From positions 1,780,248-1,844,247 of the forward strand of contig OZ241751.1 in the NCBI GenBank assembly GCA_965201135.1: a stretch of 64,000 nucleotides of DNA, written 5' to 3'. The notes beneath the pieces are model-generated. The model searched no databases. It worked only from the letters and a program-made list of their open reading frames with translations, and was not told where the DNA came from. Positions within the stretch are counted from its first letter, which is position 1. Each line of letters starts with the position of its first letter. Origin of the DNA: Dehalococcoidia bacterium. GTDB taxonomy: Bacteria; Chloroflexota; Dehalococcoidia; Lucifugimonadales; Australimonadaceae. The position numbers and the translations under genes were made by a program. Positions 2,775-38,538 of this stretch are shown piece after piece.

Positions 2775-3080
2775 GGATTCCCGCCTACGCGGGAATGACG
2801 GGGCAGGGGGTAGGTTCCCGCTTTCGCGGGAATGACGCGGCGCGTTGCGCCCCGTCCGCAGTACCCTCTCCCGCCGCGTTCGCGGCGTCCTCTCCCCTTC
2901 TAGGAGACCTTTGCATAACCCCTCACTACAGAGCCGGGGCGCCCCAATTCACTCCTAGCATTAAGAGGAATTGCGGGCCGCAACTGAGTTATGCAAAGGT
3001 CTCTTATAGGGAGAGGGGGAATTCGGCGCTTGCGCGCCTCAATAGGGGCGAGGTTCCCGCTTTTGCGGGAATGACGGGCA
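2775..3080. repeat. Palindromic repeat mosaic interrupted by a MITE
   Basis: Modules A (x3), E, D, C and B in reverse orientation. Module C is split by the element at 2904..3003. Confidence 0.9.
2904..3003. mobile_element. MITE (~100 bp) carrying the terminal inverted repeats of the IS5-family element
   Basis: GAGACCTTTGCATAACC ... GGTTATGCAAAGGTCTC-type ends (here GAGTTATGCAAAGGTCTC) are identical to the ends of the IS at 32424..33629. The AT-richer ~65-bp core has no ORF. It is flanked by the two halves of repeat module C (CCTCTCCCCTTCTAG | TTATAGGGAGAGG). Confidence 0.8.
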
Positions 3081-3119
3081 GGGGGCGTCGCGCCGCACCG
3101 TGCGCCCGCATCCCGCCCG

Positions 3120-3566
3120 CTAGGGGCGGAACGGGTTCTCCCCGATAATCCGTGCGCCGTGCGCTTCCCATAGGAACACAATGGCGGGAACGAACGCGAA
3201 CGCGAGCAGCATTGGCCCCGTTTCGAGCCACCAGCGGGCGGAGAACGCGATCATCGGAAGGACGAGCGGCAATGAGAACGCGCCCGCTAACGATAGCGTA
3301 AGCCGTCGTCGCTTGCTTACGACCGCGAGCAATCCGAACGCGGCGACGGGCAGCGGAATGACCCAGTAAAGCGCGAGGAAGAGGCGCTGGATGCCCAGGT
3401 CAGGGACGCCCCACCGCGCCATTACGTAGACCGCGGCGCTCCATCCGATGTAGAGCGACATGCCGATCGCCGCGCCTACGCAAGGGGAGCCGCGCAGCCG
3501 ACGCCCAACGAAGAGCGCGCCTGCGCCGCAGGCCGCCGCGCCTCCGAGAAGCAGCAGGGCCGCCAT
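3120..3566 (-). CDS. Hypothetical membrane protein (about 4 TM helices)
   Basis: 148 aa with four hydrophobic stretches. The start lies 10 nt downstream of the PLD-like gene stop on the same strand, so an operon is probable. No family recognised. Confidence 0.55.
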   Translation of the reverse strand: MAALLLLGGAAACGAGALFVGRRLRGSPCVGAAIGMSLYIGWSAAVYVMARWGVPDLGIQRLFLALYWVIPLPVAAFGLLAVVSKRRRLTLSLAGAFSLPLVLPMIAFSARWWLETGPMLLAFAFVPAIVFLWEAHGARIIGENPFRP

Positions 3567-3575
3567 AGCCGGCGC

Positions 3576-4367
3576 CTATCCTACGGCTGTCGCGTAGCAG
3601 GCGGGGCAAAGCGGTTTGGCGTAAGTCGTCGGGGCGGACGCGCCGCACTTGTGGCAGTGCTTTTCGCGGTAGTTGGGGTTCCTAAAGCGGCTCCACTCCG
3701 CATAGCAGCGCTCGCATAGCGGCTTGTCCGACGGAGCGTATTTGATGACCTTTCGGCAACGAACGCAGCGCCCGCGCTTCAGCAGCGTCTGCGCCCGCTT
3801 CAGCGCCCTTAGCGCCTTGCCCGGCGCCTCCGCTCTGATCCGGTCGAGCCTGTCTCGAACGGAACCGTCGCCTTGCGGCTCTCGCGGACTCTCCTCCGCG
3901 CGGGCGCGTCCGTCTTCGGTTGGCCGCTCGACGCGCTCGCCGAGTTTCGTAAGGCGAACCGCGTAGTCGCGCAGGGCCGCGTAGGCGGCGCCGCCGTTCA
4001 CCAGCATGCCGACGTCCATCGAGTTTCTGCTGGAGCGCTCCGTCAAGTTCATCGACGAAAGCAGCGCGGCGGACTCGTTGAGGTACAACTTCGCGTGGAG
4101 GTTCGGCAGCCGGTAGACCGTCGCGCCCGTTCCCATAAGCCACTCGTTGCCGTCGCCGCGCGAGTAGCCGTTGGGGTTGTAGATGGCGGTGACGCGAACT
4201 TTCCGCTCTATGGCGAACGTGATCTCGTTCTTGAGGTGCGTCCAGAACGCGTTGTAGGGCGAGACCAAGACGACGTACTTTTTCGCCTCTCTGATGAGGG
4301 CGAGCGCCGTCTGAGCGACGGCGTCGTCCGTGACCACGTGAATGCCTGATTCGTTGCTTGCGCCCAC
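3576..4367 (-). CDS. PLD/HKD-family nuclease-like protein with C-terminal double zinc ribbon
   Basis: It has a single HKD-type motif, PNLHAKLYLNESAALLSSMNLT. The C-terminal ~70 aa carries four CxxC pairs (CVRC..CERC, CHKC..CPAC). GC is somewhat lower than in neighbouring genes. Confidence 0.7.
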   Translation of the reverse strand: MGASNESGIHVVTDDAVAQTALALIREAKKYVVLVSPYNAFWTHLKNEITFAIERKVRVTAIYNPNGYSRGDGNEWLMGTGATVYRLPNLHAKLYLNESAALLSSMNLTERSSRNSMDVGMLVNGGAAYAALRDYAVRLTKLGERVERPTEDGRARAEESPREPQGDGSVRDRLDRIRAEAPGKALRALKRAQTLLKRGRCVRCRKVIKYAPSDKPLCERCYAEWSRFRNPNYREKHCHKCGASAPTTYAKPLCPACYATAVG

Positions 4368-4509
4368 CGGCTTGCGCCTCGCCTTGCTCCGGGCGGCGAT
4401 TATAGCCTACGCCCGCTGGCCGACGCGAGGAGGATCCCGCGCGGATTACCGCTTGCGTCGGAGTCCGCGCTCCATGGGAACGGCTCGCCGCCCTCCGCCC
4501 TCCTTGCGC

Positions 4510-5943
4510 CTACGACCCCAACTTCGCGTCCGCAAACGCGGCGGCGTAGAGGCGCGCCTCCTCCTCCGTCGCGCCGCCATTGATCTGCGACGTGTACGCT
4601 TCCTCGTAGGCCGCCGCGTAAGTCGCCGCCTCCTGATCCTCGCGCCCCGCGAGTTTCGCGTCGGCGTAGGACGAGGCGTAGATGTGCGCCCGGTCCTCCG
4701 ACCAGCCGGCGAGGACTTTCTGGTTGAAATAGATGCGATAATAATCCCAGGCGTAAGAGTCATGCGCGTCCTCTGCTAGCCCCTTTTCAGTGGCATAGTG
4801 GACGCCTCTGAAGTACGAATCGGCATTAAGGTATGCAGATTGATCAGAAAATCCAAGATCCACTTTCCCTAAGGCAAATATCCTAGCGTATTCATACGCA
4901 GCATACCCAGGGTTGTCCCAGCCCCTGCTCTCGGCTCTACTTAGCCCTCGGCCATAGGCATCGGCGTAGGCCGCCGCCCAGACGTAAATCTGGTGTTCCT
5001 CGGTGTAGCCTTGCTCAGGCTCCGCCCTCCAAACTGCCTCTTCGTAGCCTCTCCGGTACGCTACTCCGTAATTGATCCGCTGCAGAACGTTCTTAGAACG
5101 CGACCTCTCATAGCCGCGCACAGACGCATCGGCAAGGTTGGCCGCTTCTTCTTCCATGTTCCCACTGTAAATATATCCTGCATAGACCGAAGCGTAGACG
5201 TGAGCAGTTATTCCTGTCGCATCCGTTTGCGCGAAGGCGACCGCATAGGTTTCCTCGAACGATGCTTCGGTGGAGTCATTTTCGGATGAGAACGGCCACC
5301 AGCCGTTGCGCCGCGCCGCCTCGCTTGCGCGCCCCAGCGCATCCGCCAGCGGCAAAGGCGAATCGCCGACCACCGCCTCTGCGAAGGCTGCGGTGTAGTC
5401 CGCAAGAGCGGCTTTGTCGTCCTCTTCGGTGAAACCATTGCGGGCAGCGACAGCCGAATGGTAGACGACGCCGCTGGCATAGGCGCGAGCGTCGGCGTTG
5501 CCCAGCCTCAACGCTTTCGCATCCGCAAACGCGCCAGCGTAAGTCTCCGCGTCGCCATCCTCCAATCCTTCCGCGCCGGCATAGCCGAGCCCGGCGGTGT
5601 ACTCGGGAGGGCGTGGCGTAGGCGTGGGCGTCGCCGCAGGAGTCGGCGTTGCGGTGGGACGCGGCGTCGCAGTTGGGGTCGGCGTTGGCCGCGGCCGAGG
5701 AGTTGCGGTCGGGCGAGGCGTTGGGGTCGCGGTGGGAGACGGCGTTGCGGTTGGCGTCGCCGTTGGTCGCGGCGTCAAGGTAGGCGTTGCCGTCGGCTGC
5801 GGCGTAGGCGTGGGAGTGGGTTCCGCCGTTGGCGTGGGCGGCGGCGTAGCCGTCGGTTCGGGCGTAGGCGTAGGCGAGGCGCACCCCGCGACGATGATGA
5901 GCAGAACGGACAGACCGACGACGGCAAACGCTTTGCAAGCCAT
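4510..5943 (-). CDS. Lipoprotein with Pro/Thr-rich linker and Tyr/Ala-rich helical-repeat domain
   Basis: Start set at ATG 5943, with AGGAGG 5 nt upstream. [21 protein letters not shown] is a signal peptide plus lipobox. It is followed by a ~100-aa PT linker and then a ~330-aa domain with recurring ..YA..Y..A.. periodicity. The 3' two-thirds is visibly lower in GC. Confidence 0.75.
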
Positions 5944-5976
5944 AGAACCCTCCTGTGACACGGAGCGAAGGTGCTT

Positions 5977-6088
5977 GCAACATGTCTTCAGCCCGACGTG
6001 GCTCGACAGGAGGGCGCACGGCCCTCCGTCCGCGATAACCGAGCCACAAGCGTGCGCACGGGGCGCAGCAAGGCCTCAGACATGTTGC
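5977..6088. other. ~112-nt nested inverted-repeat (multi-stem) element in the divergent intergenic region
   Basis: Perfect 11-bp closing stem GCAACATGTCT (5977..5987) / AGACATGTTGC (6078..6088). Inner stems are GTGGCTCG (5998..6005) / CGAGCCAC (6040..6047), GGAGGGC/GCCCTCC and TGCGC/GCGCA. Confidence 0.5.
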
Positions 6089-6130
6089 GGAGCGTACTCT
6101 AGCAGGCGGGGCGGGGGATGGCAAGGGGGG

Positions 6131-6160
6131 TTGACAGGGAATGGCCAGATCAGGTAAGGT
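6131..6160 (+). promoter_or_regulatory. Sigma70-like promoter candidate for the HEPN-motif gene
   Basis: TTGACA (6131..6136), an 18-nt spacer, then TAAGGT (6155..6160). AGGAGG and the ATG at 6181 follow. Confidence 0.4.
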
Positions 6161-6180
6161 GATGGTAGGAGGCTTGGACG

Positions 6181-7089
6181 ATGCTGATCCGTGCGGAGTA
6201 CGTTGTCCGGTTGTCTACACCGATATACATCTGCCCCGACTTGGAGGGACCTGTCCCTTCGATAAAGTTCGACCGCCAGGGCTTCGCCGTTGAGATTAAC
6301 AGGTGGGGCTTCACAAGCCATCAGCCTATTCCTGACGGCGGCTTCGACCCTGGGGAAATGTCCGCTGTCAGCGTGAGGATAACAGGGGACGAACCTGGGG
6401 GGTTGACAATCAAGGCTTTGCCAAGCGACATCCAGGAGAAGTACGAGGGGGTGTTGATTGCCAGCCTCATGGAATTCGTGAATTGGGTTCGCATAAGAAC
6501 GCAACAAACGCACCTGAACAATCGGTTCCCTGTGCGGGAGTATGACGTTGTATTTTTCTCTGAAGAGGGAATTATATCTCAACAGCAAACCGTCAAAAAT
6601 CCTAGGCGCGGCGCTTTCTCGATGCACCCAGATAACTTCGTTGGTTCATTAGGGTCATGCGAATGGCAAGACATAGGCGAGTCGCTTCGCCAAGGCGGAC
6701 CGCCGCATAGCGTGGACACCTTGGTATATCAGGCCAAGGCTTTGCTCAGTGAAGGGTTCAATGGCCCTGCGCTGATCATTGCGGTCACTGCTCTTGAATA
6801 CTATTGCTGGAACGCGATTCCTGAAGATAAGCGATTCCGTAACACACATAAGGGGAAATCGCCGAAAGGGGTTAAAGAGTTATTTAAAACGCTAGTGGAG
6901 ATGATTGGCAAGGACGCCATGCTCCCCATCGACGGTAAGCTTATTGGGCAAATCATAGAACGCCGTAATGCCGTAACACATGGAAGGGAAGACGAATCCA
7001 CCCGGTCAGATATAAACTACATTATCCGCGCCATACGCGCAATTCGGAGGGAACGTTCCGGCGGTAAGCGTTCGGTGAAGCAGTCCTAG
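6181..7089 (+). CDS. Hypothetical protein with C-terminal HEPN-type (Rx4H) motif
   Basis: 302 aa, roughly 50% GC against about 70% surroundings. The C-terminal LIGQIIERRNAVTHGRE contains R-N-x3-H, the HEPN RNase signature, and is preceded by helical segments. The N-terminal ~170 aa is unrecognised. Confidence 0.7.
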   Translation: MLIRAEYVVRLSTPIYICPDLEGPVPSIKFDRQGFAVEINRWGFTSHQPIPDGGFDPGEMSAVSVRITGDEPGGLTIKALPSDIQEKYEGVLIASLMEFVNWVRIRTQQTHLNNRFPVREYDVVFFSEEGIISQQQTVKNPRRGAFSMHPDNFVGSLGSCEWQDIGESLRQGGPPHSVDTLVYQAKALLSEGFNGPALIIAVTALEYYCWNAIPEDKRFRNTHKGKSPKGVKELFKTLVEMIGKDAMLPIDGKLIGQIIERRNAVTHGREDESTRSDINYIIRAIRAIRRERSGGKRSVKQS

Positions 7090-7158
7090 TAACAGGGTGC
7101 TTTCGGTGCTTGCGCGCCGCTGGGTTCCTGCCTACGCGGGAATGACGGTAGAGAGCCC

Positions 7159-8334
7159 CTACCGGGCGACGCCTTGCGCGGTTCGGTCGTCGCCTTGCGC
7201 GGCGAGGCGGGCGGCGGCGGACGCGATGAGGCTGCCCATCGCCGTCTCCGACCAGAACCAGCGCTGGCGGTCTTCCTCGCTTTCGTTGGGGCGCCGGCAG
7301 AGGCGCGCCTCCATAAAGAACGCCTTGAGGTCGTCGCAGGCGAGGCGGAGAAAGCGGGCGGACGGCGTTCCTTCGGGCGCGTCGGGATACGGCGCGTCGT
7401 CTCCGGCGGCGAACGCCTGCATCCACCGGACGAGACCGCGAAACCGGCGCTGGGGCGTTCCGCTGAGGCCGACCATCGTGCGGCCCTTCTCCGCGACCCA
7501 GCGCTCGTAGTAGCCGCGCAGCGCGGTGACCTCGCCGGCGGGGTCGCCGTCGCGGTTGGCGGCGTCCGCTTGCGCCACGCTCGCCTGCAGGAGGACGGGA
7601 GGCGCGTCGGCGTCCTCCGGGAACTCGGCGAGCGCGGGGACGGCCTGCGCCTGCAGCAGCCCGAGCGCGGCGGCGAGAACCTTATGCTGAAAGGCGGGGG
7701 CGTCCGGCTTGCCGAGCGCGAAACCGAAGGGGAACGGCGCCCAAAGCGCGCGGGGCGGCTTCACGCGCTGCGCGTGCTCCTTGACGAGCGCGATTGCGAC
7801 GGTGGGCAAGCCCGTCTCCTCTATGGCTCGCGCCAGCACACTGACCGTGTGCGTGCAGTTCGGTCAGGTGGGCGTGAGCAGCGCGGCGTCCGCGCCCTCC
7901 TCCAGCAGGAGGCGGCCGACCTCCGGCCCCGTCTCGCTTTCGATGCGGCGGGGGCTGCGCTGCGCGCCCATAAACGAATAACAGCGCTCCGCGAGCGAGC
8001 CGACCTCTCCGCGCTCGACGAGTTCCCGCATGCGGTCTATCGGAAACGTGACGTTCACGTCGCGCATAATGCCGGTGCGGTCGAACCCGATGCTCATATG
8101 GCTCTGGATGAGGTCGGCGGCTTGGGCGCCGGACGGAATGACGCGGTAGGACTCGTCGCCGGACGAGAAGGGAGCGTCGCCGCGCAAGTGCAGCCCGGCG
8201 GTGGTGACCAGCGCGACTTTGGCCTCGGCGAGCGGCTTCGAGAACGGCGCGAACGGGGCGTCGTCGTGGTCGAACGCGGGAAAGTTCAGCATCGCCTGCC
8301 GGGCTGCGTCGGGCAGATCTTCCAATCGCGGCAT
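7159..8334 (-). CDS. GRDB-family (glycine/sarcosine/betaine/D-proline reductase component B-like) protein with in-frame TGA, candidate selenoprotein
   Basis: Track ORFs 7864..8505 and 7159..7839 share one frame and are separated only by TGA at 7864..7866. The junction reads ..EEGADAALLTPT-U-PNCTHTVSVLARAIEETGLPTVAIALVKEH.., a UxxC motif. Start set at ATG 8334, with GGAG upstream. Confidence 0.7.
7836..7852 (-). promoter_or_regulatory. SECIS-like hairpin 3' of the in-frame UGA
   Basis: The mRNA reads GCACAC-GGUCA-GUGUGC, a perfect 6-bp stem with a GGUCA loop. The stem starts 12 nt after the UGA codon. Confidence 0.4.
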
Positions 8335-8476
8335 CGGCGTCTCCTTCGCTAGCGGAACGGATTTGCGGGGTATTGCGCCGCGCCGCATTTCGGCCTCGAC
8401 GGGACGAGTGCGACATTCGGCGCTTGCGCGGCGGCTTCCGCGCTCCCTATCGTAGCGCCCGCGCTTCGCAAAGCGT

Positions 8477-8788: not shown

Positions 8789-8815
8789 GCTCAGGGAGCG
8801 GGGGCGGCGGACGGC

Positions 8816-9250: not shown

Positions 9251-9316
9251 TTGCTCGAATCGTCCTGCGGGATGCCGGCTACAGGATAGCGGGGAGGCGC
9301 TCCATCCGCATACGGA

Positions 9317-10804
<1,488 letters not shown>

Positions 10805-10836
10805 ACGCTCCCGCTTCGAAGGCCGCTCCGATTCTA

Positions 10837-13936: not shown

Positions 13937-14188
13937 GTGATTCCCGCATAGGCGGGAATCACGTCCCATTTAAAGGCGCGCAAGCGCCTGCATCCCCCTC
14001 TCCCTAGAAGGGGAGAGGGCGCCGCGAACGTGGCGGGAGAGGGTACTGCGGACAGGGCGCAATGCGCCCCGTCATTCCCGCGAAAGCGGGAATCCCGCCC
14101 CCACTTGAGGCGCCCCAGCGCCGCAGACGGGGCGCAGCCCCGTCTCCATAGAATCCCCGGCGCATCGTCATTCCCGCGAAAGCGGGAA
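13937..14188. repeat. Palindromic repeat mosaic
   Basis: Modules A-B-C-D-E-A followed by a type II unit. The terminal GTCATTCCCGCGAAAGCGGGAA hairpin abuts the IS30 insertion. Confidence 0.9.
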
Positions 14189-18950: not shown

Positions 18951-19378
18951 CCCATAACCGTCATTCCGGCGTAGGCCGGAATCCAGAGGCGCGAAAGCGC
19001 CGCATTTCCCCTCTCCCTATAAGGGGAGAGGACGCCATAAGGGGAGAGGACGCCGCGAACGCGGCGGGAGAGGGTACTGTGGTCGGGAGGCGCAACGCGC
19101 CCCCCATAACCGTCATTCCGGCGTAGGCCGGAATCCAGAGGCGCGAAAGCGCCGCATCCCCTCTCCCTAGAAGGGGAGAGGACGCCGCGAACGCGGCGGG
19201 AGAGGGTGCTGTGGTCGGGAGGCGCAACGCGCCCCCCATAACCGTCATTCCGGCGTAGGCCGGAATCCAGAGGCGCGAAAGCGCCGCATTCCCCTCTCCC
19301 TAGAAGGGGAGAGGACGCCGCGAACGCGGCGGGAGAGGGTACTGCGGGCTGAGCGGCGGGGTTATGCAAGGGTCGCCT
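18951..19378. repeat. Tandem triplication of a composite repeat unit (152, 132 and ~115 bp), ending in a degenerate MITE right end
   Basis: The units start at 18951, 19103 and 19235 with CCCATAACCGTCATTCCGGCGTAGGCCGGAATCCAGAGGCGCGAAAGCGCC..CCCTCTCCCTA[T/G]AAGGGGAGAGGACGCCGCGAACGCGGCGGGAGAGGGT[A/G]CTGTGGTCGGGAGGCGCAACGCGCCCC. The array ends with GGGGTTATGCAAGGGTCGCC-TAGAAGGGGAGAG. Confidence 0.9.
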
Positions 19379-19432
19379 AGAAGGGGAGAGAACGCGGCGG
19401 GAGAAGGCGCTGCGGACAAGAGCGAAGAGGTT

Positions 19433-20245
19433 ATGCCAATGTCCCCGCTGAGCATAGGAGTCGTCGGATGCGGCGCGATAGGCCGCGCCATTCTCCGCGC
19501 CGCCGACGAAGGCGCGCTAGACGTCGAGGTCGCCGGCGCCGCGAGCCGCTCGGAACCCCCGGCCCGCGAGTTCCTCTCGACGCTCCGCGAGCCTCCGCCC
19601 TATCTGAGCGTCGGCGAGTTGATCGAGCAGGCCGACCTCATCGTGGAGGCCGCCGGCGCGTCCGCCGCCCCCGGCCTGGTGGACGCCGCGTTCGCCGCCG
19701 GCAAGGGCGCGATGGTCATCAGCGTCGGCGCCCTTATCGCCCATCCCGAGTTGCTGGAGAAGGCGCGCAAGACCGGCTGCCGCCTCCTGATGCCCTCCGG
19801 CGCCATTATCGGGCTGGACGGCGTCAAGGCCGCGTCGGAGGGCCGCGTAGACCGCGTCGTGATGGAGTCGCGCAAGGGCCCCGCCGCGCTCGACGGCGCC
19901 CCGCATATCGTCCAAAGCGGCCTCGACCTCTGGGCACTGGACGAGGAGAGCGTCGTCTTCTCCGGCTCCGCGCGCGAGGCGTGCGCCGCCTTCCCCGCCA
20001 ACCTCAACGTCTCCGCCGCCGTCAGTTTCGCCGGAATCGGCCCCGACCGGACCGAGGTCCGGATGATCGCCGTCCCAGGCCTCGAGCGCAACTGCCACGA
20101 CGTGGAGGTCGAGGGCGAATTCGGCCTGATGCGCCTCCACTTAGAGAACATCCCCGGCGAAAATCCCAAGACCGGGCGCCTCACCGCAATGTCCATCATC
20201 CGCGCCCTCCGCCAGGAAACCGACCCCGTCCGCTTGGGAACGTAG
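19433..20245 (+). CDS. nadX: L-aspartate dehydrogenase
   Basis: Starts MPMSPLSIGVVGCGAIGRA.. The C-terminal ..FPANLNVSAAVSFAG..NCHDVEVEGEFG..ENIPGENPKTGRLTAMSIIRAL is characteristic of NadX. Confidence 0.8.
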   Translation: MPMSPLSIGVVGCGAIGRAILRAADEGALDVEVAGAASRSEPPAREFLSTLREPPPYLSVGELIEQADLIVEAAGASAAPGLVDAAFAAGKGAMVISVGALIAHPELLEKARKTGCRLLMPSGAIIGLDGVKAASEGRVDRVVMESRKGPAALDGAPHIVQSGLDLWALDEESVVFSGSAREACAAFPANLNVSAAVSFAGIGPDRTEVRMIAVPGLERNCHDVEVEGEFGLMRLHLENIPGENPKTGRLTAMSIIRALRQETDPVRLGT

Positions 20246-20412
20246 CGCCTTCAAGCCTCTGCGCGCCCCATGCCGCCTCCCCGCCCATGCCGCCTCTCGT
20301 GCCCCCCTTGCCTCCTGCCCGCCCCAGGCCCCTGCGCGCCCCTTGTCCCGTCATTCCGGCGTAGGCCGGAATCCAGAGGCGCGCGAGCGCCGAATTCCCC
20401 TCTCCCCTTATA

Positions 20413-21930
20413 GAGACCTTTGCATAACCCCCAAATCGGCGCGATCGGCAGTTCCGCGCCCCCGGAACAGGCCATTCGCCCGCCTAAGTCCCTCCGAATG
20501 CGGCCTCCTCCGCCCCTTCTCGCCCCCAATTTAGGGGCTTCGCAGGGCCTCGTACCGCCAACGGACAGACCACGCCCTACCCATGCGCCGCGCAACCCTC
20601 TCAATCCTTCCGCCCGCCGAAAGTTGCACGCCAACGCCTTGAACGCCTCCGCCTCGTTCCTCATTAGCCCCATGCACCTCACCCGCCAGTACCCTTAGCA
20701 GCGCTTGAGCGTCCCTAGCGCCTGCTCCACAGGCGCCCGAACCTTCGACAGCAATCGCGCACAATAACCGCAACCCCCAACCGCGAGGAGACAGCTATGC
20801 GCCTCGAAGCCAGCGACCCCTCCTTCATCGACGCCTTCCTCCCTTCCAACGCAGGCCGCAACGACAGGCTCGACCGCATCGACGCCTCATCGATTGGCCC
20901 AAAGTCGCAGCCATCCTCGACGACGTCCACGCCGCCCCCGAAGGCCGCCCCGCGTACCGCCCAGTCACGATGGTCAAGACCATCGTCCTCCAGCAGTGGC
21001 ACGACACGTCCGACGTGGGCATGGAGGAGGCGCTCCAAGACCGGCTGTCGTTCCGGCGGTTCGCGGAGCTCACGCTGACGGACGCGGTTCCGGACCACTC
21101 GACGATCAGCCGGTTTCGGAAGAAGATCACGGAGCGGGGCTGGCGCGGGCGCTGTTCGCGGAAGTGAACCGGCAGTTGGAGGCGAAGGGCATGCTGGTGA
21201 AGCGCGGAACGCTGATCGACGCGACGATCATCGAGGCGCAGGCGCGGCGTCCGCAGTCGGAGGCTGGGGCGCGGAGCGGAACGGACCCCGACGCTGCGTG
21301 GACGCGGAAGAGGAAGAAGGCGCATTCGGCTGCAGGGTGCACATCGGCATGGACGCGGGGTCGGGGCTGATACGGGGGGTTGAGTTCACGCCAGCGAACG
21401 TAGCGGACACGGAGGCAGCGGACGCGCTGATCATGGGGGACGAGGAAGCGGTGCACGCGGACAAGGCGTATGAGTCGAAGGAGCGGCGTGAGCATCTGCG
21501 TTCGCAAGGCGTGAAGGATCGGATCATGCACAGGGGGCACAAGCATCAGACGGAGCTCCGCATTGGCAGCGGAGGAGGAATGGGCTGCTGTCGAAGGTGC
21601 GGGCGCCTGTGGAGCAGGCGCTAGGGACGCTCAAGCGCTGCTAAGGGTACTGGCGGGTTCGGTATATGGGTCTCGGGATGAACGAGGCGGAGGCGTTGTT
21701 CAAGGCGCTGGGGTGCAACTTGCGACGGGCGGACGGGTTGAGAGAGGGTTGCGCTGCGCATGGGTAGGGGCGTATTGCGCCCGTTGGCGGTTTGAGGCCC
21801 TGCGAGCCCCTGAGTTGGGGGCGGGTAGGGGAGGAGGAGGCCGCGTTCGGAGGACTTGGGCGGTCGAATGGCCTGTTCCGGGGGCGCGGAACTGCCGATC
21901 GCGGCGATGCGAGGGTTATGCAAAGGTCTC
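20413..21930. mobile_element. Scrambled, degenerate IS5-family copy with an inverted ~340-bp right-end fragment fused to a 5'-truncated copy
   Basis: 20413..~20753 is the reverse complement of an IS right end and starts with GAGACCTTTGCATAACC. From ~20751 a forward copy follows that lacks the first ~25 bp of the left end and runs to GGTTATGCAAAGGTCTC at 21930. The whole element is flanked by TATA inside repeat module C. Confidence 0.8.
20797..21767 (+). pseudogene. IS5-family transposase pseudogene
   Basis: It is collinear with the intact gene at 32491..33465. It carries at least two 1-nt deletions (near 20885 and 21140) and an in-frame TAA (..LKRC*GYWRVRY..). The translation is split over track ORFs 20797.., 20970.., 20894.. 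and 21298.. Confidence 0.85.
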
Positions 21931-22141
21931 TATAGGGAGAGGGGGATTGGGCGCTTGCGCGCCTCTGGATTCCGGCCTACGCCGGAATGACGGGACAAGG
22001 GGCACGGTGGCGCTGGGCTAAGGCGGGGCGGATACGCCCTGCGGCGGGGATTGCCTGCGGGCCGTGCGGCTACGCGCAAGGCGCGCGCTCTGCTATGCTA
22101 GGCGCTCCCAAACCCCTCGCCATTGCATGGAGGAGCCGCGG

Positions 22142-24370: not shown

Positions 24371-24385
24371 CGGAGCGAGCGCCCT

Positions 24386-26124: not shown

Positions 26125-26495
26125 ACCGTCATTCCCGCGTAGGCGGGAATCCCGCCCCATTGAGGCGCGCAAGCGCCTAATTCCCCCTCTCCCTACAAGG
26201 GGAGAGGACGCCGCGAACGCGGCGGGAGAGGGTACTGCGGTCGGGCGCAACCCGCGCCCCGTCATTCCCCCCCACCCTACCGTCATTCCTGCGTAGGCAG
26301 GAATCCATTCGGCGCGCCAGCGCCACAGACGGGGCGCGGGGCGCCCCGTCTCCCCTGATCCCCCGCCCCACGTCATTCCCGCGAAAGCGGGAACCTACTG
26401 GAACACATCCACGCGCCGCGCAAGCCCAGGCAGGCCTCGCCCCGCGCGACGGGGATGCGAGATTCCCGCCTATGCGGGAATGACGGGGCGCGTCG
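26125..26495. repeat. Palindromic repeat mosaic
   Basis: Modules A-B-C (CCCTCTCCCTACAAGGGGAGAGG)-D-E, a type II unit, and a terminal reverse module A. Confidence 0.9.
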
Positions 26496-32033: not shown

Positions 32034-32063
32034 CGGCGGGAGGCGAGGGAGGAAATCCGGCGG

Positions 32064-32300: not shown

Positions 32301-32423
32301 CCGCGATGGGCGCGGGGGCATAGGGGTGGGTAGGTTCCCGCTTTCGCGGGAATGACGGGGCGCGTTGCGCCCCAACCGCAGTACCCTCTCCCGCCGCGTT
32401 CGCGGCGTCCTCTCCCCTTATAG

Positions 32424-33629
32424 GAGACCTTTGCATAACCTTCCGCAATCGCGCACAATGACCGCAACCCGCAACCGCGAGGAGACTGCTATGCATCTCG
32501 AAGCCAGCGACCCCTCCTTCATCGACGCCTTCCTCCCTTTCAACGCAGGCCGCAACGACAGACTCGACCGCATCGACCGCCTCATCGATTGGCCCAAAGT
32601 CGCAGCCCTACTCGACGATGTCCACGCCGCGCCCGAAGGACGGCCCGCCTACCGCCCGATCACGATGGTCAAGATCATCGTCCTCCAGCAGTGGTACGAC
32701 TCCTCCGACGTCGGCATGGAGGAGGCGCTCCAAGACCGGCTGTCGTTCCGCCGCTTCGCGGAGCTCACGCTGACGGACGCGGTTCCCGACCACTCGACGA
32801 TCAGCCGGTTTCGGAAGAAGATCACGGAGCGGGGGCTGGCGCGGGCGCTGTTCGCGGAAGTGAATCGGCAGTTGGAGGCGAAGGGCATGCTGGTGAAGCG
32901 CGGAACGCTGATCGACGCGACGATCATCGAGGCGCAGGCGCGGCGCCCGCATTCGGAGGCTGGAGCGCGGAGCGGAACGGACCCCGACGCCGCGTGGACG
33001 AAGAAGGGGAAGAAGTCGCATTTCGGCTACAAGATGCACATAGGGATGGACGCGGGGTCAGGGCTGGTGCGCGGGGTTGAGTTCACGCCTGCGAACGTTG
33101 CGGACACGGATGTTGCGGACGCGCTGATCATGGGGGACGAAGAGGCGGTGTACGCGGACAAGGCGTATGAGTCGAAGGAGCGTCGTGAGCGTCTGCGGGC
33201 GCAGGGCGTGAAGGATCGGATCATGCATCGGGGGCATAAGCATCAGACGGAGCTGCCGCATTGGCAGCGGCGGCGGAACGGGCTGCTGTCGAAGGTTCGG
33301 GCGCCGGTGGAGCAGGTGTTTGGGACGCTGAAGCGCAGCTATGGGTACTGGCGGGTTCGGTACATGGGGCTAATGAGGAACGAGGCGGAGGCGTTGTTCA
33401 AGGCGCTGGCGTACAACCTGCGGCGCGCGGACGGGTTGAGAGAGGGTTGCGCTGTGCATGGGTAGGGGCGTATTGCGCCCGTTGGGGGTACGAGGCCCTG
33501 CGAAGCCCCTAAATTGGGGGCGAGCAGGGGAGGTGGAGGCCGTTATCGGGGGATTTGGGCGGTTGAATGGCTGATTCCGGGGGCGCGGAACTGCCGATCG
33601 CGCTGATGCGAGGGTTATGCAAAGGACTC
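32424..33629 (+). mobile_element. Intact IS5-family insertion sequence (1206 bp)
   Basis: Terminal inverted repeats are GAGACCTTTGCATAACC (32424..) and GGTTATGCAAAGGACTC (..33629). There is a 5-bp direct repeat TATAG at 32419..32423 and 33630..33634. It is inserted in the loop of repeat module C (CCTCTCCCCT-TATAG / TATAG-GGAGAGGGGG). Confidence 0.9.
32491..33465 (+). CDS. IS5-family DDE transposase
   Basis: Start at ATG 32491. ..TMVKIIVLQQWYDSSDVGMEEALQDRLSFRRFA..LIDATIIEA..ADKAYES..VEQVFGTLKRSYGY.. are typical IS5-group motifs. Confidence 0.9.
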   Translation: MHLEASDPSFIDAFLPFNAGRNDRLDRIDRLIDWPKVAALLDDVHAAPEGRPAYRPITMVKIIVLQQWYDSSDVGMEEALQDRLSFRRFAELTLTDAVPDHSTISRFRKKITERGLARALFAEVNRQLEAKGMLVKRGTLIDATIIEAQARRPHSEAGARSGTDPDAAWTKKGKKSHFGYKMHIGMDAGSGLVRGVEFTPANVADTDVADALIMGDEEAVYADKAYESKERRERLRAQGVKDRIMHRGHKHQTELPHWQRRRNGLLSKVRAPVEQVFGTLKRSYGYWRVRYMGLMRNEAEALFKALAYNLRRADGLREGCAVHG

Positions 33630-33714
33630 TATAGGGAGAGGGGGAATGCGGCGCTTATGCGCCCGACTGGATTCCTTGCTACGCAGGCAGGCGGCGGGTT
33701 ATGCAAAAGTTCCG

Positions 33715-34818
33715 CTAACCGGAGCGCTGCTCCGGCGGGAAGACGGCGACCGGGCCGTTGACGCCAATCCGCAGCCGCTCGCCTGCCTCTATGGGAACGC
33801 CCGCGCCCACGCCCACGATGGACATGACCTCCGCGCCGCAAGCGAGGCGCAGAAAGACGGCCTTGTAGGCGCCCCGGAACTCGACGGACGTCGCTTCCGC
33901 CTCGACCGTCGGGCCCCTCTCAGGACGCAGGCGGATCGTTTCGGGGCGAACGGAGACTTTGACGGCGCCGTCAAGGGCGCCGGCGTTGGCGACGCGCAGC
34001 GTTCCCAACGCGCACGCCACGCTTCCGCCGACGCGCTCGCCGTCGAGGATGTTGGCCGCGCCGAGGAATCGCGCCGCCTCCAGCGAAACGGGCGAGAGGC
34101 ATACGTCCTCCGGCGGGCCGCATTGGACGACGGCGCCGCGCAGCATAATGCAGACGGCGTCGGCGAGGGCGAACGCTTCGTCCTGATCGTGCGTCACGAA
34201 TACGGCGGTCGCGCCGGCCTCGCGGAGGATCCGGCGCGTCTCGCCGCGGACGCGCTGCCGCAGGTCGGCGTCCAGGTTCGAGAACGGCTCGTCGAGCAGC
34301 ACGACGCTCGGCTTGGCCGCGAGCGCGCGGGCGAGGGCGACGCGCTGCTGCTGCCCGCCGGAGAGTTCGTGAGGCAGGCGCTCGGCCTCCGGGCGAACGC
34401 CGACGAGGTCGAGCGCGGCGTCCACGGCGCGGTCGCGCCCCTCTCCCCGCGGAACGCCGAACGCGACGTTTTTTCGGACCGTGAGGTGCGGGAAGAGCGC
34501 GTAGTCCTGAAAGACCATTCCGACGCGGCGGCGCTCCGGCGGCGTGAACGAGGTAGGCGACGCGACGACCGCGCCGTCCACCGACACGCTGCCGGCGTCG
34601 GGCGCCTCGAAGCCCGCGATGAGGCGGAGGATAGTGGTTTTGCCGCATCCGCTAGGGCCGAGGAGCGCCGTCATGCTTCCGCGGGCGGCCTCGAAGGAGG
34701 CGCCGGCGACGGCTTGCGCGTCGCCGAAGCGTTTGGCGAGCGCCTCGACGCGGACGGCGGGGCCGTCGAGGGGCGGTGCGGGGCGGGAGGCGCTCCGGCG
34801 GGAAAATACGACGCGCAT
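33715..34818 (-). CDS. ABC transporter ATP-binding protein (PotA/FbpC-like), orphan
   Basis: Walker A GPSGCGKTT, signature LSGGQQQRV, Walker B VVLLDEP, and a C-terminal TOBE-like extension. No permease or binding-protein gene is nearby. Confidence 0.85.
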   Translation of the reverse strand: MRVVFSRRSASRPAPPLDGPAVRVEALAKRFGDAQAVAGASFEAARGSMTALLGPSGCGKTTILRLIAGFEAPDAGSVSVDGAVVASPTSFTPPERRRVGMVFQDYALFPHLTVRKNVAFGVPRGEGRDRAVDAALDLVGVRPEAERLPHELSGGQQQRVALARALAAKPSVVLLDEPFSNLDADLRQRVRGETRRILREAGATAVFVTHDQDEAFALADAVCIMLRGAVVQCGPPEDVCLSPVSLEAARFLGAANILDGERVGGSVACALGTLRVANAGALDGAVKVSVRPETIRLRPERGPTVEAEATSVEFRGAYKAVFLRLACGAEVMSIVGVGAGVPIEAGERLRIGVNGPVAVFPPEQRSG

Positions 34819-34943
34819 ACCCTAACGATACGCGCATGCGATGCGCGGCGCAATGGACGGACGAAGCCTAACGCGCTCCGCGCGCTTTTGGCGGCGGGGC
34901 GGGGTCCGTCGCAGCGCAGGGAAGGGGCGTTCGCGCAAGAGGG

Positions 34944-35178
34944 TGGGGTAGGTTCCCGCTTTCGCGGGAATGACGCGGCCCCTGGGGATTGAGGAGACGG
35001 GCTACGCCCGTCTGTGGCGCCGTGGCGCCGAATGGATTCCTGCCTACGCAGGAATGACGGCAAGGAGGATGGAATGATGCGGCGCGTTGCGCCCCGTCCG
35101 CAGTACCCTCTCCCGCCGCGTTCGCGGCGTCCTCTCCCCTTCTAGGGGGGGCCATCATTCCCGCGAACGCGGAAATCC
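34944..35178. repeat. Palindromic repeat mosaic
   Basis: A reverse type II unit followed by reverse E-D-C modules and a degenerate module A. Confidence 0.9.
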
Positions 35179-35181
35179 GCT

Positions 35182-35313
35182 CTACTTCCCCGTCGCCTTG
35201 AGCGCGTCCACCTCGCTCTGCAGCGATGCGACCTGCGCCCGAAGCGAGGCCAGTTCCCCCCGCATCTGCTTGATCTCGACCTCGATGACCGTCAGTTCGG
35301 ATTTCGTAACCAT
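35182..35313 (-). CDS. Possible 43-aa coiled-coil peptide
   Basis: Hand translation gives MVTKSELTVIEVEIKQMRGELASLRAQVASLQSEVDALKATGK*. AGGAG lies 8 nt upstream, and the ORF is 23 nt downstream of the FmdB-like gene. It is below the ORF-track size cutoff. Confidence 0.35.
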   Translation of the reverse strand: MVTKSELTVIEVEIKQMRGELASLRAQVASLQSEVDALKATGK

Positions 35314-35336
35314 CCCATGCTCCTGGAGGCCGCGGC

Positions 35337-35543
35337 CTATCCCTGATTTCCCTGACCGGAGCGGAACGCCCCGCTCCGAGGCACGCGCAGCGTGTAGCCC
35401 TCTTTCGACGCGAACACCGACGGCAGACGCCCCGCCTCCTTACCGCACAACGGACACTCCGCCGGGCTGTCCGCCTCGCTCATCGGCTTGCGCCGCTCGA
35501 ACTCCTCGCCGCAGTCCGAGCAGCGGTATTCGTACAACGCCAT
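35337..35543 (-). CDS. FmdB-family zinc-ribbon protein
   Basis: MALYEYRCSDCGEEFE..CPLCG is the CxxC..CxxC putative regulatory zinc-ribbon signature. Confidence 0.75.
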   Translation of the reverse strand: MALYEYRCSDCGEEFERRKPMSEADSPAECPLCGKEAGRLPSVFASKEGYTLRVPRSGAFRSGQGNQG

Positions 35544-35672
35544 CTCTTCCGCTCCTTCCAATGTCGCCGAGCCTCGCCATCCGCCGGACGCATCATAGTC
35601 TACTCCCCAAGCCTGACGGCGGGCGAGGCGGCTTTGCTACAATCATCGCCCAGCGCAGGAGGACAATTCCCT

Positions 35673-36695
35673 ATGGGCGTGCCCGCGTCGCAGGCTTGGA
35701 CGGTCGCCGCCTACGTGCTCAAGCAGCGCGTCAGGCGCCGCGAGCGCTATCCGCTTGTCCTAATGCTGGAGCCCCTCCTGCGCTGCAACCTCGCCTGCGC
35801 CGGATGCGGCAAGATCCAGTATCCCCCGCATGTCCTCAAGCGCGCCCTCTCCGTCGAGCAATGCCTCGCCGCCGTCGAGGAGTGCGGCGCCCCCATCGTC
35901 AGCATCCCCGGCGGCGAGCCGCTCCTCTATCCCCATATCGGCGAACTCGTCAAGGAACTCGTCCGCCGCAAGAAATACGTCTACCTCTGCACGAACGCCC
36001 TGCTGCTGAGCGAAAAGTTGGCCGAGGGCGTGTTCGCGCCCTCCAAGCGCCTCACCTTCAGCGTCCATATGGACGGCCTCCGCGAGGAGCACGACGCGTC
36101 CGTCTGCCGCGCCGGCGTCTACGACATAGCGACCGACGCCATACGCGACGCCATACGCCGCGGCTTCCGCGTAACCACCAACACCACGCTCTTCAGCGCG
36201 TCCGAGCCCGCCCGCGTCCGCGACTTCTTCGACGCGATGACGGACCTCGGCGTCGAAGGAATGATGATCTCCCCGGGCTACTCCTACGAGAACGCGCCCG
36301 ACCAAAACTCCTTCCTAGAGCGCGAGAAAACCCGCGAACTCTTCGCCCAAGCGCTCGCCGGCAAGAAGAAGCGCTGGCGGTTCAACCAGTCCCCCCTCTT
36401 CCTGCAGTTCCTGATGGGCAAGCGCGAGTTCGAATGCCTGCCCTGGGGCAACCCCCTCTACACCATCTTCGGATGGCAGCGCCCTTGCTACCTCCTGCAA
36501 GACGGCTACGCCCCGACCTTCCGCCAACTGATGGACGAGACCCCGTGGGAGGAGTACGGGCGCGCCAGCGGCAACCCTCAATGCGCCGACTGCATGGTGC
36601 ACTCCGGCTACGAGCCCGCCGCCGTCCACGCGACGTTCGCCACCTGGCGCGGCCTCCGCGACGCCGCAGCCGCCACGCTCTCCGGCAGGCTCTAA
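35673..36695 (+). CDS. hpnH: Adenosyl-hopene transferase (radical SAM)
   Basis: Start at ATG 35673 after AGGAGGA. ..RYPLVLMLEPLLRCNLACAGCGKIQYP.. (CxxxCxxC), ..YLCTNALLL.. and ..WGNPLYTIFGWQRPCYLL..CADCMVHSGYE are collinear with HpnH. Confidence 0.9.
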   Translation: MGVPASQAWTVAAYVLKQRVRRRERYPLVLMLEPLLRCNLACAGCGKIQYPPHVLKRALSVEQCLAAVEECGAPIVSIPGGEPLLYPHIGELVKELVRRKKYVYLCTNALLLSEKLAEGVFAPSKRLTFSVHMDGLREEHDASVCRAGVYDIATDAIRDAIRRGFRVTTNTTLFSASEPARVRDFFDAMTDLGVEGMMISPGYSYENAPDQNSFLEREKTRELFAQALAGKKKRWRFNQSPLFLQFLMGKREFECLPWGNPLYTIFGWQRPCYLLQDGYAPTFRQLMDETPWEEYGRASGNPQCADCMVHSGYEPAAVHATFATWRGLRDAAAATLSGRL

Positions 36696-36742
36696 ATAGA
36701 CCTTCGCCCACCCTCAACAAGCCTCGCCAGCCGCCCGCCCAT

Positions 36743-37150
36743 GACCGTCATTCCCGCGCAAGCGGGAATCTCGCCCCATTGAGGCGCGCAAGCGCCGAAT
36801 TCCCCCTCTCCCTATAGGGGAGAGGACGCCGCAAACGCGGCGGGAGAGGGTACTGCGGACGGGGCGCGTAGCGTCCCGTCATTCCCCACCCTTACCGTCA
36901 TTCCGGCGTAGGCCGGAATCCATTCGGCGCCCCAGCGCCACAGACGGGCGCAAGCCCGTCTCCATAGATCCCCCGGGCGCCTCGTCATTCCCGCGAAAGC
37001 GGGAACCTACCCCCGCGCCGCTTCCCCTCTACCGTCATTCCGGCGTAGGCCGGAATCCATTCGGCGCCCCAGCGCCACAGACGGGCGCAAGCCCGTCTCC
37101 ATAGATCCCCCGGGCGCCCCGTCATTCTCGCGAAAGCGGGAACCTACCCC
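36743..37150. repeat. Palindromic repeat mosaic containing a tandem duplication of a ~120-bp type II unit
   Basis: Modules A-B-C-D-E are followed by two near-identical copies (36894..37014 and 37031..37150) of ACCGTCATTCCGGCGTAGGCCGGAATCCATTCGGCGCCCCAGCGCCACAGACGGGCGCAAGCCCGTCTCCATAGATCCCCCGGGCGCC.CGTCATTC.CGCGAAAGCGGGAACCTACCCC. Confidence 0.9.
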
Positions 37151-37174
37151 TCGCCCCACCCCCATCGTGCTACG

Positions 37175-37492
37175 ATGATCCCTATGAACGAGCGCATAGC
37201 ATCGCCTTCCGCCACGGAAGAAGAGAGACGCGGCGAAAGCGCCCCCGTCGCCGATCTCATCGAGCGCGCCTTCCGCTTCCGCGGCGACGTAACCCTCACG
37301 ACGGCGGACGGCGCCGAGATCACCGGCTATCTCTACAACCGCGACGGCGCAAGCGTCCAACTCTTCGAAACCGCCACCGGCCGCGACCTCTCCCTGCCCT
37401 ACTCCGCCCTAACCGCCGTCCGCCTCACCGGACGCGACACGGCGACCGGCAAGCATTTCGAATCCTTCCAGCGCCGCCGCGCCCGGCAATGA
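37175..37492 (+). CDS. Hypothetical protein in the hopanoid cluster
   Basis: 105 aa. Its stop overlaps the hpnG start (ATGA). Composition is non-shadow (..RFRGDVTLTTADGAEITGYLYNRDGASVQLFE..). No family recognised. Confidence 0.45.
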   Translation: MIPMNERIASPSATEEERRGESAPVADLIERAFRFRGDVTLTTADGAEITGYLYNRDGASVQLFETATGRDLSLPYSALTAVRLTGRDTATGKHFESFQRRRARQ

Positions 37493-38538
37493 CCTCCCCC
37501 GCCATCCTCATCGTCGCCCCCACGAAGCGCGAACTCGGCGGCCTGCGCGAAACGAACGCCCGCTCTTCCCTCTCCGCAGCGAAACGCGAAGAGAACGCCC
37601 GCGCCCCTATTCGCGAAACAGAACGCGATGAAGACGCCTACGCCGCCGAACGCGAGATCGAGCGCGAGACGGACGACCGCGCTCGAATTGCCCTTTGCGG
37701 AATCGGGCGCGAAGCCGGAGAGCGCGTCGCCGCCCTCCTGGACGCCGCCCCATGCTCCCTGGTCGTCTCGCTTGGCTTCGCAGGCGCCCTCGACCCCGCC
37801 CTCCGCCCCGGCGCCCTCATCGTCGCCGACGCCTTCCTCTACGCCGACGCGCCCCCTCTAGCCCCGCCCGCCCCCCTCTCCCTACAGAGACCTTTGCATA
37901 ACATACCGTCATTCCGGCGTAGGCCGGAATCCAGAGGCGCGCAAGCGCCGAATCCCCCTCTCCCTATAAGGGGAGAGGACGCCGCGAACGCGGCGGGAGA
38001 GGGTACTGCGGACGGGGCGGCGGGGTTATGCAAAGGTCTCCTACAAGGGGAGAGGGCGGGGGAGAGGGTACTGGCGACAGGAGATGAGCGAAGCATTGAC
38101 GGGGCGCAGCCCCGTCTCCACGATGAATCATCGGGCCGCGTCATTCCCGCGAAAGCGGGAACCTACCCCTCCGGCGCGCTCCTCACCGTCGACGCGCCCC
38201 TCCTTACGCCCGCCGCCAAGCGCCGCGCGCGAGCCGCATCCGGCGCCGCCGTCGTGGATATGGAGGGGCGCCGCATCGCCGAGGCCGCAGCCGAGCGCGG
38301 CGTCCCCATCGTCGCCGTCCGCGCCGTGATCGACGAGGCCGACTTCGCGCTCCCGCCGTTCGCCGCCGAAATCGCCGCCGCACGCGGACACGACGAACGG
38401 GCGCGCGCGTTCCGCGCCGCCGCCAACCCCCGCGAGGCCGCCGGCATGCTCCTCCTCGCGCTCCGCGCCCGAAAAGCCGCCCGCAGCCTCCGCCGCGCCG
38501 CCGACGCCATCCTCGCCGCCCAGCCGGAGCGCCCGTGA
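37489..38538 (+). CDS. hpnG: Hopanoid-associated phosphorylase (HpnG-like) carrying a ~100-codon in-frame repeat/MITE insertion
   Basis: The N-terminal part reads ..ALCGIGREAGERVAALLD..LVVSLGFAGALDPALRPGALIVADAFL. The C-terminal part reads ..GALLTVDAPLLTPAAKRRARAASGAAVVDMEGRRIAEAAAERGVPIVAVRAVIDEAD. Both match the nucleoside-phosphorylase-like HpnG layout. The segment ~37870..38168 between them is made of the intergenic repeat modules. Confidence 0.7.
   Translation: MTSPAILIVAPTKRELGGLRETNARSSLSAAKREENARAPIRETERDEDAYAAEREIERETDDRARIALCGIGREAGERVAALLDAAPCSLVVSLGFAGALDPALRPGALIVADAFLYADAPPLAPPAPLSLQRPLHNIPSFRRRPESRGAQAPNPPLPIRGEDAANAAGEGTADGAAGLCKGLLQGERAGERVLATGDERSIDGAQPRLHDESSGRVIPAKAGTYPSGALLTVDAPLLTPAAKRRARAASGAAVVDMEGRRIAEAAAERGVPIVAVRAVIDEADFALPPFAAEIAAARGHDERARAFRAAANPREAAGMLLLALRARKAARSLRRAADAILAAQPERP
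37887..38030. mobile_element. MITE (144 bp) with IS5-family terminal repeats, inside the hpnG reading frame
   Basis: GAGACCTTTGCATAAC ... GTTATGCAAAGGTCTC ends. There is a 5-bp direct repeat CTACA at 37882..37886 and 38031..38035, and the flanks reconstitute module C (CCCTCTCC-CTACA-AGGGGAGAGG). The interior consists of modules A-B-C-D-E. Confidence 0.85.

Follow-up and report, generated by a model that had tools for sequence, protein, structure and literature searches.

The 64-kb window analysed here, the whole stretch of 64,000 nucleotides taken from contig OZ241751.1 of a Dehalococcoidia bacterium, contains an intact insertion sequence (IS) of the IS5 family and several short non-autonomous elements that carry its 17-bp ends. 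In all likelihood these represent an active IS5-group lineage that moves by ordinary DDE transposition and has its targets restricted to one type of repeat palindrome, referred to as module C. The insertion point, the target duplication, the use of both orientations, the recent activity and the specificity for module C over other sites can be read directly from the copies. Targeting of the module C loop by the IS and by MITEs (miniature transposable elements with inverted repeats) had been proposed in a first-pass annotation of the window, and it holds for every intact IS copy (7/7), in both orientations, for 21 of the 22 ends that are well preserved, and at an orthologous site where a relative has kept module C intact.

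The window has a GC content of ~68%, and protein comparison finds the relatives of its proteins in metagenome-assembled genomes (MAGs) of Chloroflexota and Dehalococcoidia. The terminal repeat GAGACCTTTGCATAACC has 11 matches with at most 3 mismatches in the 64 kb (0.06 expected), and the corresponding element ends lie at 2904, 3003, 19376, 19445, 20413, 21930, 32424, 33629, 33713, 37887 and 38040. Module C is the palindrome CCCTCTCC-CTAnA-AGGGGAGAGG; scanned as CCCTCTCCC-N5-GGGGAGAGG, it is intact at 9 places in the window, with 0 expected. A typical unoccupied copy is found on the plus strand at 26185..26207 (CCCTCTCCCTACAAGGGGAGAGG), others are located at 2335, 13996, 19009, 19159, 19292, 27439 (minus strand) and 52744, and variant copies occur at 711 and 36804. 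The copies at 26185 and 52744 are the uninterrupted targets to which the first-pass annotation had pointed.

A module C half adjoins all 9 window ends that have at most 2 mismatches, in agreement with the earlier view that the ends share one 17-bp repeat and sit in the centre of module C. Two strongly decayed ends, 19429-19445 and 33697-33713, have no adjoining module C half. The latter, a degenerate terminal repeat on the minus strand with 3 mismatches, stands beside a degenerate module A and is also present at the orthologous site in a related contig (L124). Moreover, a sixth occupied module C, absent from the earlier list, was identified at 42354..42370 on the minus strand, where a degenerate solo right end (GGTCAATGCGAGGTCTC) is followed by TGTCG + GGAGAGGG and module B. 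Being a short, GC-rich, imperfect palindrome that occurs in many copies and in variable mosaics with other modules, module C corresponds to the description of repetitive extragenic palindromic (REP) sequences and bacterial interspersed mosaic elements (BIMEs). The 64 kb hold 9 intact copies plus variants and ~39 A/G-type hairpins, in variable combinations. No Rfam family reached its gathering score in a scan of the window, and hence the modules are not a known RNA.

The intact IS (1206 bp; 32424..33629, plus strand) shares 96.8% identity with five copies found in a related genome. Its terminal repeats, left at 32424-32440 and right at 33613-33629, match at 16 of 17 positions and enclose a transposase gene (32491..33465, plus strand; 324 aa) with the domains DUF772 and DDE_Tnp_1. 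The protein matches PF01609 (DDE_Tnp_1; 1.5e-32) and PF05598 (DUF772; 1.1e-25) of Pfam, and scores 317 bits against the NCBIfam model NF033581 "IS5 family transposase", for which the cutoff is 140. Its closest annotated plasmid relatives are IS5-family transposases with at most 48% identity, and megablast of the IS against the PLSDB plasmids gave no match. With a size within ~1-1.5 kb, a single open reading frame (ORF) and short terminal inverted repeats, the 1206-bp element can be classed from its sequence as an IS5-family, IS5-group insertion sequence with one intact DDE transposase ORF. It departs from the group in one trait: the IS5 group makes a 4-bp target duplication (ISfinder), whereas this lineage mostly makes 5 bp and sometimes 6. 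The insertion has split a module C on the minus strand into a left half (32409..32423), which ends in the duplication TATAG (32419-32423), and a right half (33630..33644), which starts with the second TATAG (33630-33634). Both junctions read as the first-pass annotation had given them.

The census of copies covers the window and about 60 kb from close relatives (~125 kb in total). On a 2.96-Mb assembly, five loci (L001-L005) encode the closest protein, P0001, with 98% identity, and a 93% relative is encoded on another assembly (L123). Six extra full IS copies, from two related metagenome assemblies, are inserted at the same nucleotide of CCCTCTCC/CTAnA/AGGGGAGAGG, and the position within module C is identical in all seven intact copies from three genomes. 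The duplications of the six extra copies (TGTAG, TGTAG, TATAG, CTATA, CTAGA and one 6-bp CTATAA) are matched within each copy. The transposase gene runs antiparallel to module C in 4 of the 7 copies and parallel to it in 3, and the outer context, with module B on one side and D-E on the other, swaps with the orientation of the IS. Since the IS is found in both orientations relative to the asymmetric B-C-D context, the module C halves belong to the target and not to the element. Among the five copies of one genome identity is 99.7-100%, which indicates recent activity, and the empty sites reconstructed from occupied copies are intact module C sequences. When the ends inside and outside module C are surveyed in the window and the close relatives, the 22 well-preserved ones have an adjoining module C half in all cases except one. 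This near-complete association of copies with one fixed repeat position, the type 1 criterion of Tobes and Pareja, is thus what we find within the ~125 kb.

Two complete MITEs of different types share this target in the window, each in one copy. The larger (154 bp; 37887..38040) lies within a split module C and is composed of a terminal repeat, modules A-B-C-D-E and a second terminal repeat, with a perfect CTACA duplication on both sides (37882-37886 and 38041-38045). The first-pass annotation had this duplication right but placed the end 10 bp short, giving 144 bp (37887..38030). It was also right that the MITE carries its own target, as an intact module C, one of the 9 of the window, is present inside it on the plus strand (37956..37978). 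The smaller MITE (100 bp; 2904..3003) has an unrelated interior and also lies within a split module C. Its flanks, earlier described as TCTAG and T-TATAG, are reread here as TTCTAG (2898-2903) and TTATAG (3004-3009), best read as a 6-bp duplication with one mismatch. Both elements display MITE traits, namely the 17-bp ends, duplications of 5-6 bp and insertion into module C. The A-B-C-D-E type is further represented by partial copies at 19250-19376, 19377-19445 and L005 636-717, and a 142-bp MITE homologous to the 154-bp one is present in multiple copies in OZ251500.

Older insertions were recognised as well. A decayed and rearranged IS occupies 20413..21930 on the plus strand: positions 20740-21930 correspond to IS positions 14-1206 (91% identity, 10 gaps), and ahead of them, at 20413-20753, stands an inverted copy of IS positions 861-1206. 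An inverted duplication of ~420 bp (20335-20753 versus 21586-22006; 88% identity) spans the IS right end together with ~75 bp of the flanking mosaic, and brackets the decayed copy. The right junction reads GGTCTC/TATAG + GGAGAGG. The left TATA lies in the inverted copy, which includes the flank, and therefore only the right junction counts as evidence; of the TATA flanks assigned to this scrambled IS in the first-pass annotation, the right one stands while the left one is no independent duplication. The solo degenerate right end reported near 19350..19378 was located at 19360..19376 on the minus strand. It belongs to an A-B-C-D-E-type MITE and adjoins CTAGA + AGGGGAGAG, the 3' half of module C. 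From there, 19377..19445 (plus strand) contains this 3' half followed by modules D and E and an older degenerate right end (19429-19445). The segment aligns with positions 37950-38045 of the 154-bp MITE region and with L005 636-722, which suggests that the insertion went into an older MITE of this family, whose right part is seen here.

The target of the 154-bp MITE can be compared with an orthologous site. In locus L125 of the 2.96-Mb relative, module C is intact at this position and contains CTACA only once (...CCCCCTCTCCCTACAGGGGGAGAGGG...), whereas the window reads CCCTCTCCCTACA/MITE/CTACAAGGGGAGAGGG, i.e. CTACA, 154 bp, CTACA. The comparison confirms the duplication at an orthologous target: the orthologous site holds an intact module C, which was one of the checks suggested in the first-pass annotation, and the two direct repeats around the MITE are a real duplication rather than a part of the palindrome. 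The synteny of L125 with the window extends over the PNP_UDP_1 gene and its downstream neighbour only, and the comparison is limited to this insertion site. The MITE lies in the ORF 37489-38538, which matches the PNP_UDP_1 family and whose orthologues range from 225 to 375 aa, each called as a single ORF. A gain of 53 codons (154 + 5 bp), a loss of 23 and a gain of 4 elsewhere fully explain the difference in protein length between the window and L125. The lost codons correspond to a 69-bp segment (modules A0-B0) that is present in L125 and bounded there by a 14-nt direct repeat (CGCCCGACCCCCTC). For the site of the intact IS the only close contig is L124, a short-read contig which ends exactly in the module C loop (…CCCCTTATA) and is hence uninformative as an empty site.

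The window contains 116 CTANA pentamers on both strands, none of which is occupied, and about 39 hairpins of the form ATTCCnGC-N4-GCnGGAAT, none of which is occupied either, while 6 of ~17 module C copies (about 11 intact and 6 occupied) have taken an insertion. Consequently, neither a preference for the bare pentamer nor one for hairpin loops in general suffices. The cut register is fixed beside the CCCTCTCC arm (0 nt), and the other arm is 3 nt away from the duplication.

Beyond the close relatives, a scan for GAGNCCTTTGCATAAC in one genome per species returned at least 117 stretches, mostly from other species, and the figures given for the wider lineage hold among the matches listed. Most of these are in MAGs of Chloroflexota and Dehalococcoidia, others in Desulfobacterota, Nitrospinota, Gammaproteobacteria and further groups, and most are pairs of MITE size (100-200 bp). 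Among 47 clean cases, 31 have a duplication of 5 bp and 14 one of 6 bp. Genomes of at least 0.55 GC account for 37 elements whose duplication is clean; 25 of these are placed in a loop closed by a perfect stem of at least 6 bp, compared with 1.7% of 13,600 random sites. In genomes with GC below 0.55, none of 10 elements lies in a hairpin loop; all 10 have 5-bp duplications, and these are A/T-rich (TAAAT, ACTAA, TTAGA, TTTAA). Two hairpin types are hit, CCCTCTCC-loop-GGAGAGGG and ATTCCCGC-GAAAG-GCGGGAAT. The MITE itself carries the same hairpin type as its site in 12 of 21 cases for the first type and in 6 of 7 for the second, while a hairpin of this sort is present in only ~3% of 110-bp windows drawn at random. 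The 154-bp MITE of the window and the 142-bp MITE of OZ251500, whose transposase is 76% identical to that of the window, have a common left part (terminal repeat, TA, CCGTCATTCCnGCGTAGGCnGGAATCCAG and module B), and this marks the repeat modules as long-standing MITE cargo.

Two further patterns were noticed among the matches listed. The motif GTCATT, the start of the ATTCCnGC-type hairpin, stands beside the terminal repeat in 20 of 43 MITEs from GC-rich genomes and in 1 of 18 from low-GC genomes. The low-GC MAGs L013, L025, L059, L060 and L093 share a 142-bp MITE that has this terminal repeat and a conserved interior. Apart from L093 they are labelled as different groups (Syntrophaceae, Desulfonema, Pseudomonadota, Deltaproteobacteria), and the duplication of the MITE is always 5 bp and A/T-rich. 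Its presence in differently labelled MAGs suggests horizontal spread of the lineage.

As for the mechanism, the transposase makes staggered cuts at CCCTCTCC^CTAnA^AGGGGAGAGG, whereby the loop pentamer is turned into the 5-bp target duplication, occasionally 6 bp. It may read module C as a duplex, from the CCCTCTCC arm together with the CTAnA loop, and the DUF772 N-terminal DNA-binding region is the probable reader. In related elements elsewhere the specificity seems to have shifted to whichever repeat hairpin abounds in the host. We think reading of the duplex more likely than recognition of an extruded hairpin.

It is rather improbable that the transposase instead recognises DNA structure, be it a hairpin, a cruciform, a bent or easily melted palindrome, or perhaps single-stranded DNA at replication forks, in which case the repeat hit would depend only on which hairpins extrude best. 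Such recognition would accommodate the relatives with the same terminal repeat that use two unrelated hairpins (CCCTCTCC/GGAGAGGG and ATTCCCGC/GCGGGAAT), as well as the different loop sequences (CAGAG, TTCTG, CGAAAG and CTAnA), each of them always covered by the duplication. However, the ~39 stable ATTCCnGC-type hairpins of the window are never hit while 6 of ~17 module C copies are, and the cut register is fixed beside one arm and off the hairpin centre. The same lineage also inserts free of hairpins in low-GC hosts (0/10), and DDE strand transfer with a 5-bp stagger requires duplex target DNA.

We consider it very unlikely that there is no module specificity at all, and that the pattern arises from a preference for A/T-containing pentamers (CTAnA, IS5-like) in a 68% GC genome or from survival only in neutral intergenic repeats. 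IS5 does prefer YTAR-type sites, and the A/T-rich duplications of the low-GC relatives, e.g. TAAAT or TTTAA, would fit. Nevertheless, all 6 insertions are in the ~17 module C sites although 116 CTANA sites are available, for which rough arithmetic from the two counts gives a chance of ~(17/122)^6 or 1e-5, and other Chloroflexota relatives use pentamers that lack TA (CAGAG, CTCTG). Moreover, one MITE lies inside a coding ORF, so survival in neutral intergenic sequence is not the filter. Still harder to credit is the view that homologous recombination or gene conversion among repeat arrays distributed the IS and MITE, an occupied module C being transferred whole, in place of repeated target-specific transposition. 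The mosaics are indeed highly similar and recombining, as seen in the tandem arrays and the 84-bp x3 array of L049, and several MITEs of L065 have mismatched flanks while the L124 orthologous site has a different interior. Conversion would, however, copy the duplication and orientation of the donor, whereas the duplications differ between copies and yet match within each (TATAG, TGTAG, CTATA, CTAGA), both orientations occur relative to the B-C-D context, and the gene neighbourhoods are unrelated. The idea that the palindrome halves are long terminal inverted repeats of the element itself, prompted by the mutually complementary sequence beyond both ends of every copy, has next to no probability and is refuted by the uninterrupted module C copies common in the same B-C-D-E context, the different loop variants around identical IS copies, the asymmetric outer context that flips, and the intact module C of L125 at the MITE site.

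Module C-restricted DDE transposition thus appears as the best account, and several points weigh against it. The census is confined to ~125 kb. One well-preserved end, the perfect solo end at L005 701-717, has no adjoining module C half, the sole such case. L125 is not a perfectly clean empty site, since its extra 69 bp requires one deletion in the lineage of the window. Furthermore, the pentamers and stems differ across the wider lineage, so that recognition of structure keeps a small probability. Finally, the duplication is off-centre on the palindrome, and a simple symmetric-dimer reading is therefore unfit here, although it does fit CCCTCTCC-CAGAG-GGAGAGGG in OZ251500.

One MITE family has module C in its interior, so that every new copy supplies a further potential target and nesting can occasionally occur. 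The first-pass annotation had gone further and envisaged nested, self-amplifying insertion as a possible origin of the mosaic arrays. The internal module C is there, but no element is inserted in that of the 154-bp MITE (37956-37978), and nesting is only suggestive, from two composites whose structure would agree with an insertion into module C of a MITE. One spans 19360-19445, where a right end is followed by CTAGA + C3'-D-E and an older right end; it aligns with L005 636-717 and with the 154-bp MITE in its right part. In the second, a unit that starts with a degenerate terminal repeat beside modules A and B holds the intact IS in its module C. As the main origin of the mosaics, nesting of MITE-borne module C is not supported. 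At 19039..19344 (plus strand) the A-B-C-D-E-F mosaic forms a tandem array (period 132, 2.3 copies, 98% matches): nesting predicts stacked left parts and then stacked right parts, not repeats of the whole unit, and we read the array as a plain tandem duplication. It is plausible but unproven that the CATAACC before each module A in this array is a remnant of a left terminal repeat. An exact 18-bp tandem duplication (ATAAGGGGAGAGGACGCC x2) is also present at 19019-19054, within the first module C/D of the array, and copies the 3' half of module C.

Another array is found in L049 (OZ251500.1, 2242-2551), where three left ends 84 bp apart with an identical flank (gccctctccTTCTG) are followed by one right end. 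This structure is a tandem triplication of the unit composed of left end, A, B, the 5' half of module C and the duplication, and was probably generated by unequal recombination between MITE-borne and resident A-B modules. A broader scenario may be put forward, as a tentative one that we hold to be unlikely: the REP-like hairpin modules of these Chloroflexota genomes (module C and ATTCCnGC-N4-GCnGGAAT) would serve one widespread IS5-group lineage as cargo and as target alike, MITEs with the hairpin beside their terminal repeat would seed new targets at each landing site, and loop insertion together with unequal recombination of MITE-borne with resident modules would build BIME-like mosaics without a REP-associated tyrosine transposase (RAYT). 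If true, this would represent a DDE-transposase route to repeat landscapes of the REP/BIME type.

Targeting of hairpin repeats is itself already known from other bacteria and transposon families. REP sequences are targets of insertion sequences of the IS3, IS110, IS4, IS256 and IS5 families (Tobes & Pareja 2006, PMC1525189), and the catalogue of REP-targeting elements includes ISPsy8, ISPa11, ISPpu9/10, ISRm22, ISRm19 and, from the IS5 family, ISNm1106 (PMC1525189). Similar to the elements described here, all or most copies of those IS are inserted at one fixed REP nucleotide, often the symmetry axis, with a duplication derived from the REP (PMC1525189). The association of ISNm1106 is only partial, with 4/7 and 7/14 copies (PMC1525189), as against 7/7 here; in addition, the host in our case is an uncultured Chloroflexota member, and MITE derivatives share the specificity. 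IS1397 and ISKpn1 (IS3 family) are the experimentally studied REP-targeting cases, and their specificity has been attributed to the transposase (cited in PMC1525189). They likewise insert into the loop region of a REP-type palindrome within mosaic arrays, the enterobacterial palindromic units or BIMEs, but belong to the IS3 transposase family and have two ORFs with a frameshift. Their duplication is 3-4 bp, and we know of no target-carrying MITE described for them.

IS621, ISPpu9 and ISPpu10 of the IS110 family also insert site-specifically into REP sequences. In these a bridge or seek RNA guides a DEDD recombinase, and terminal inverted repeats are lacking (PMC11208160, PMC11187229); IS110-family members reach REP targets by means of bridge RNAs (PMC11208160). 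The window element, in contrast, combines a DDE transposase with terminal inverted repeats and makes a 5-bp duplication. It resembles IS5 in its length of about 1.2 kb, a single DDE transposase of ~325 aa (DUF772 + DDE_Tnp_1), terminal repeats of ~16-17 bp and a CTA-containing target. IS5 makes a 4-bp duplication at YTAR (ISfinder), whereas the window lineage makes 5 bp, sometimes 6, and is confined to repeat hairpins in GC-rich hosts. A literature search with the terminal-repeat string found no paper in the library searched. The features that stand out are the complete target association of an IS5-group element, a duplication of 5 bp instead of the usual 4 bp, and MITEs that carry their own target type.

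With these elements, REP-targeted transposition comes to include an IS5-group lineage of uncultured Chloroflexota as well as MITEs that have the same specificity and can carry the target. They also offer a natural series of related transposases with the same ends and different hairpin targets, which could reveal the determinant of target choice in an IS5-type DDE transposase. In practice, such elements break short-read assemblies exactly at the repeat loops. They also insert in frame into genes, and the translated repeats give rise to recurrent peptide motifs in metagenomic protein sets.

In-frame intragenic MITEs and palindromic repeats are known, for instance the Rickettsia palindromic elements, QMITE1 and ERIC (PMC10969869). 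Like these, the 154-bp MITE together with its duplication adds 53 codons in frame to the PNP_UDP_1 gene; unlike them, it was inserted into a repeat mosaic already inside the gene. In the ORF 37489-38538 this mosaic includes, in frame, module C, E, F, a hairpin translated as GRVIPAKAGTYP, and the 154-bp MITE. The indels between the window and L125 in this ORF are multiples of three (+159 bp and -69 bp), which suggests selection keeping the frame, as with the Rickettsia palindromic elements. A second variable region is located near the N-terminus (37561-37690 in the window, residues about 25-68); it is of low complexity, rich in E and R, and ranges from 0 to about 40 aa among orthologues.

A few observations concern single loci. 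In L124, positions 8241-8314 correspond to 33630-33713 of the window, with the same degenerate terminal repeat just past the stop codon of an ABC-transporter ATPase gene. The segment from this repeat to the module C loop is E'-D' in L124 and A-B in the window, which suggests an in-place flip or an IS-mediated rearrangement, plus an assembly break at the IS. At L005 701-760, CGTAGAGAC follows the perfect solo right terminal repeat (GGTTATGCAAAGGTCTC); the sequence after this end resembles, by eye, the 3' end of an opposite-strand tRNA gene. Examples of the ATTCCnGC-N4-GCnGGAAT hairpins of the window are found at 14074-14093, 18963-18982 and 26375-26394, and these hairpins resemble the Neisseria dRS3 repeat (ATTCCC-N8-GGGAAT).

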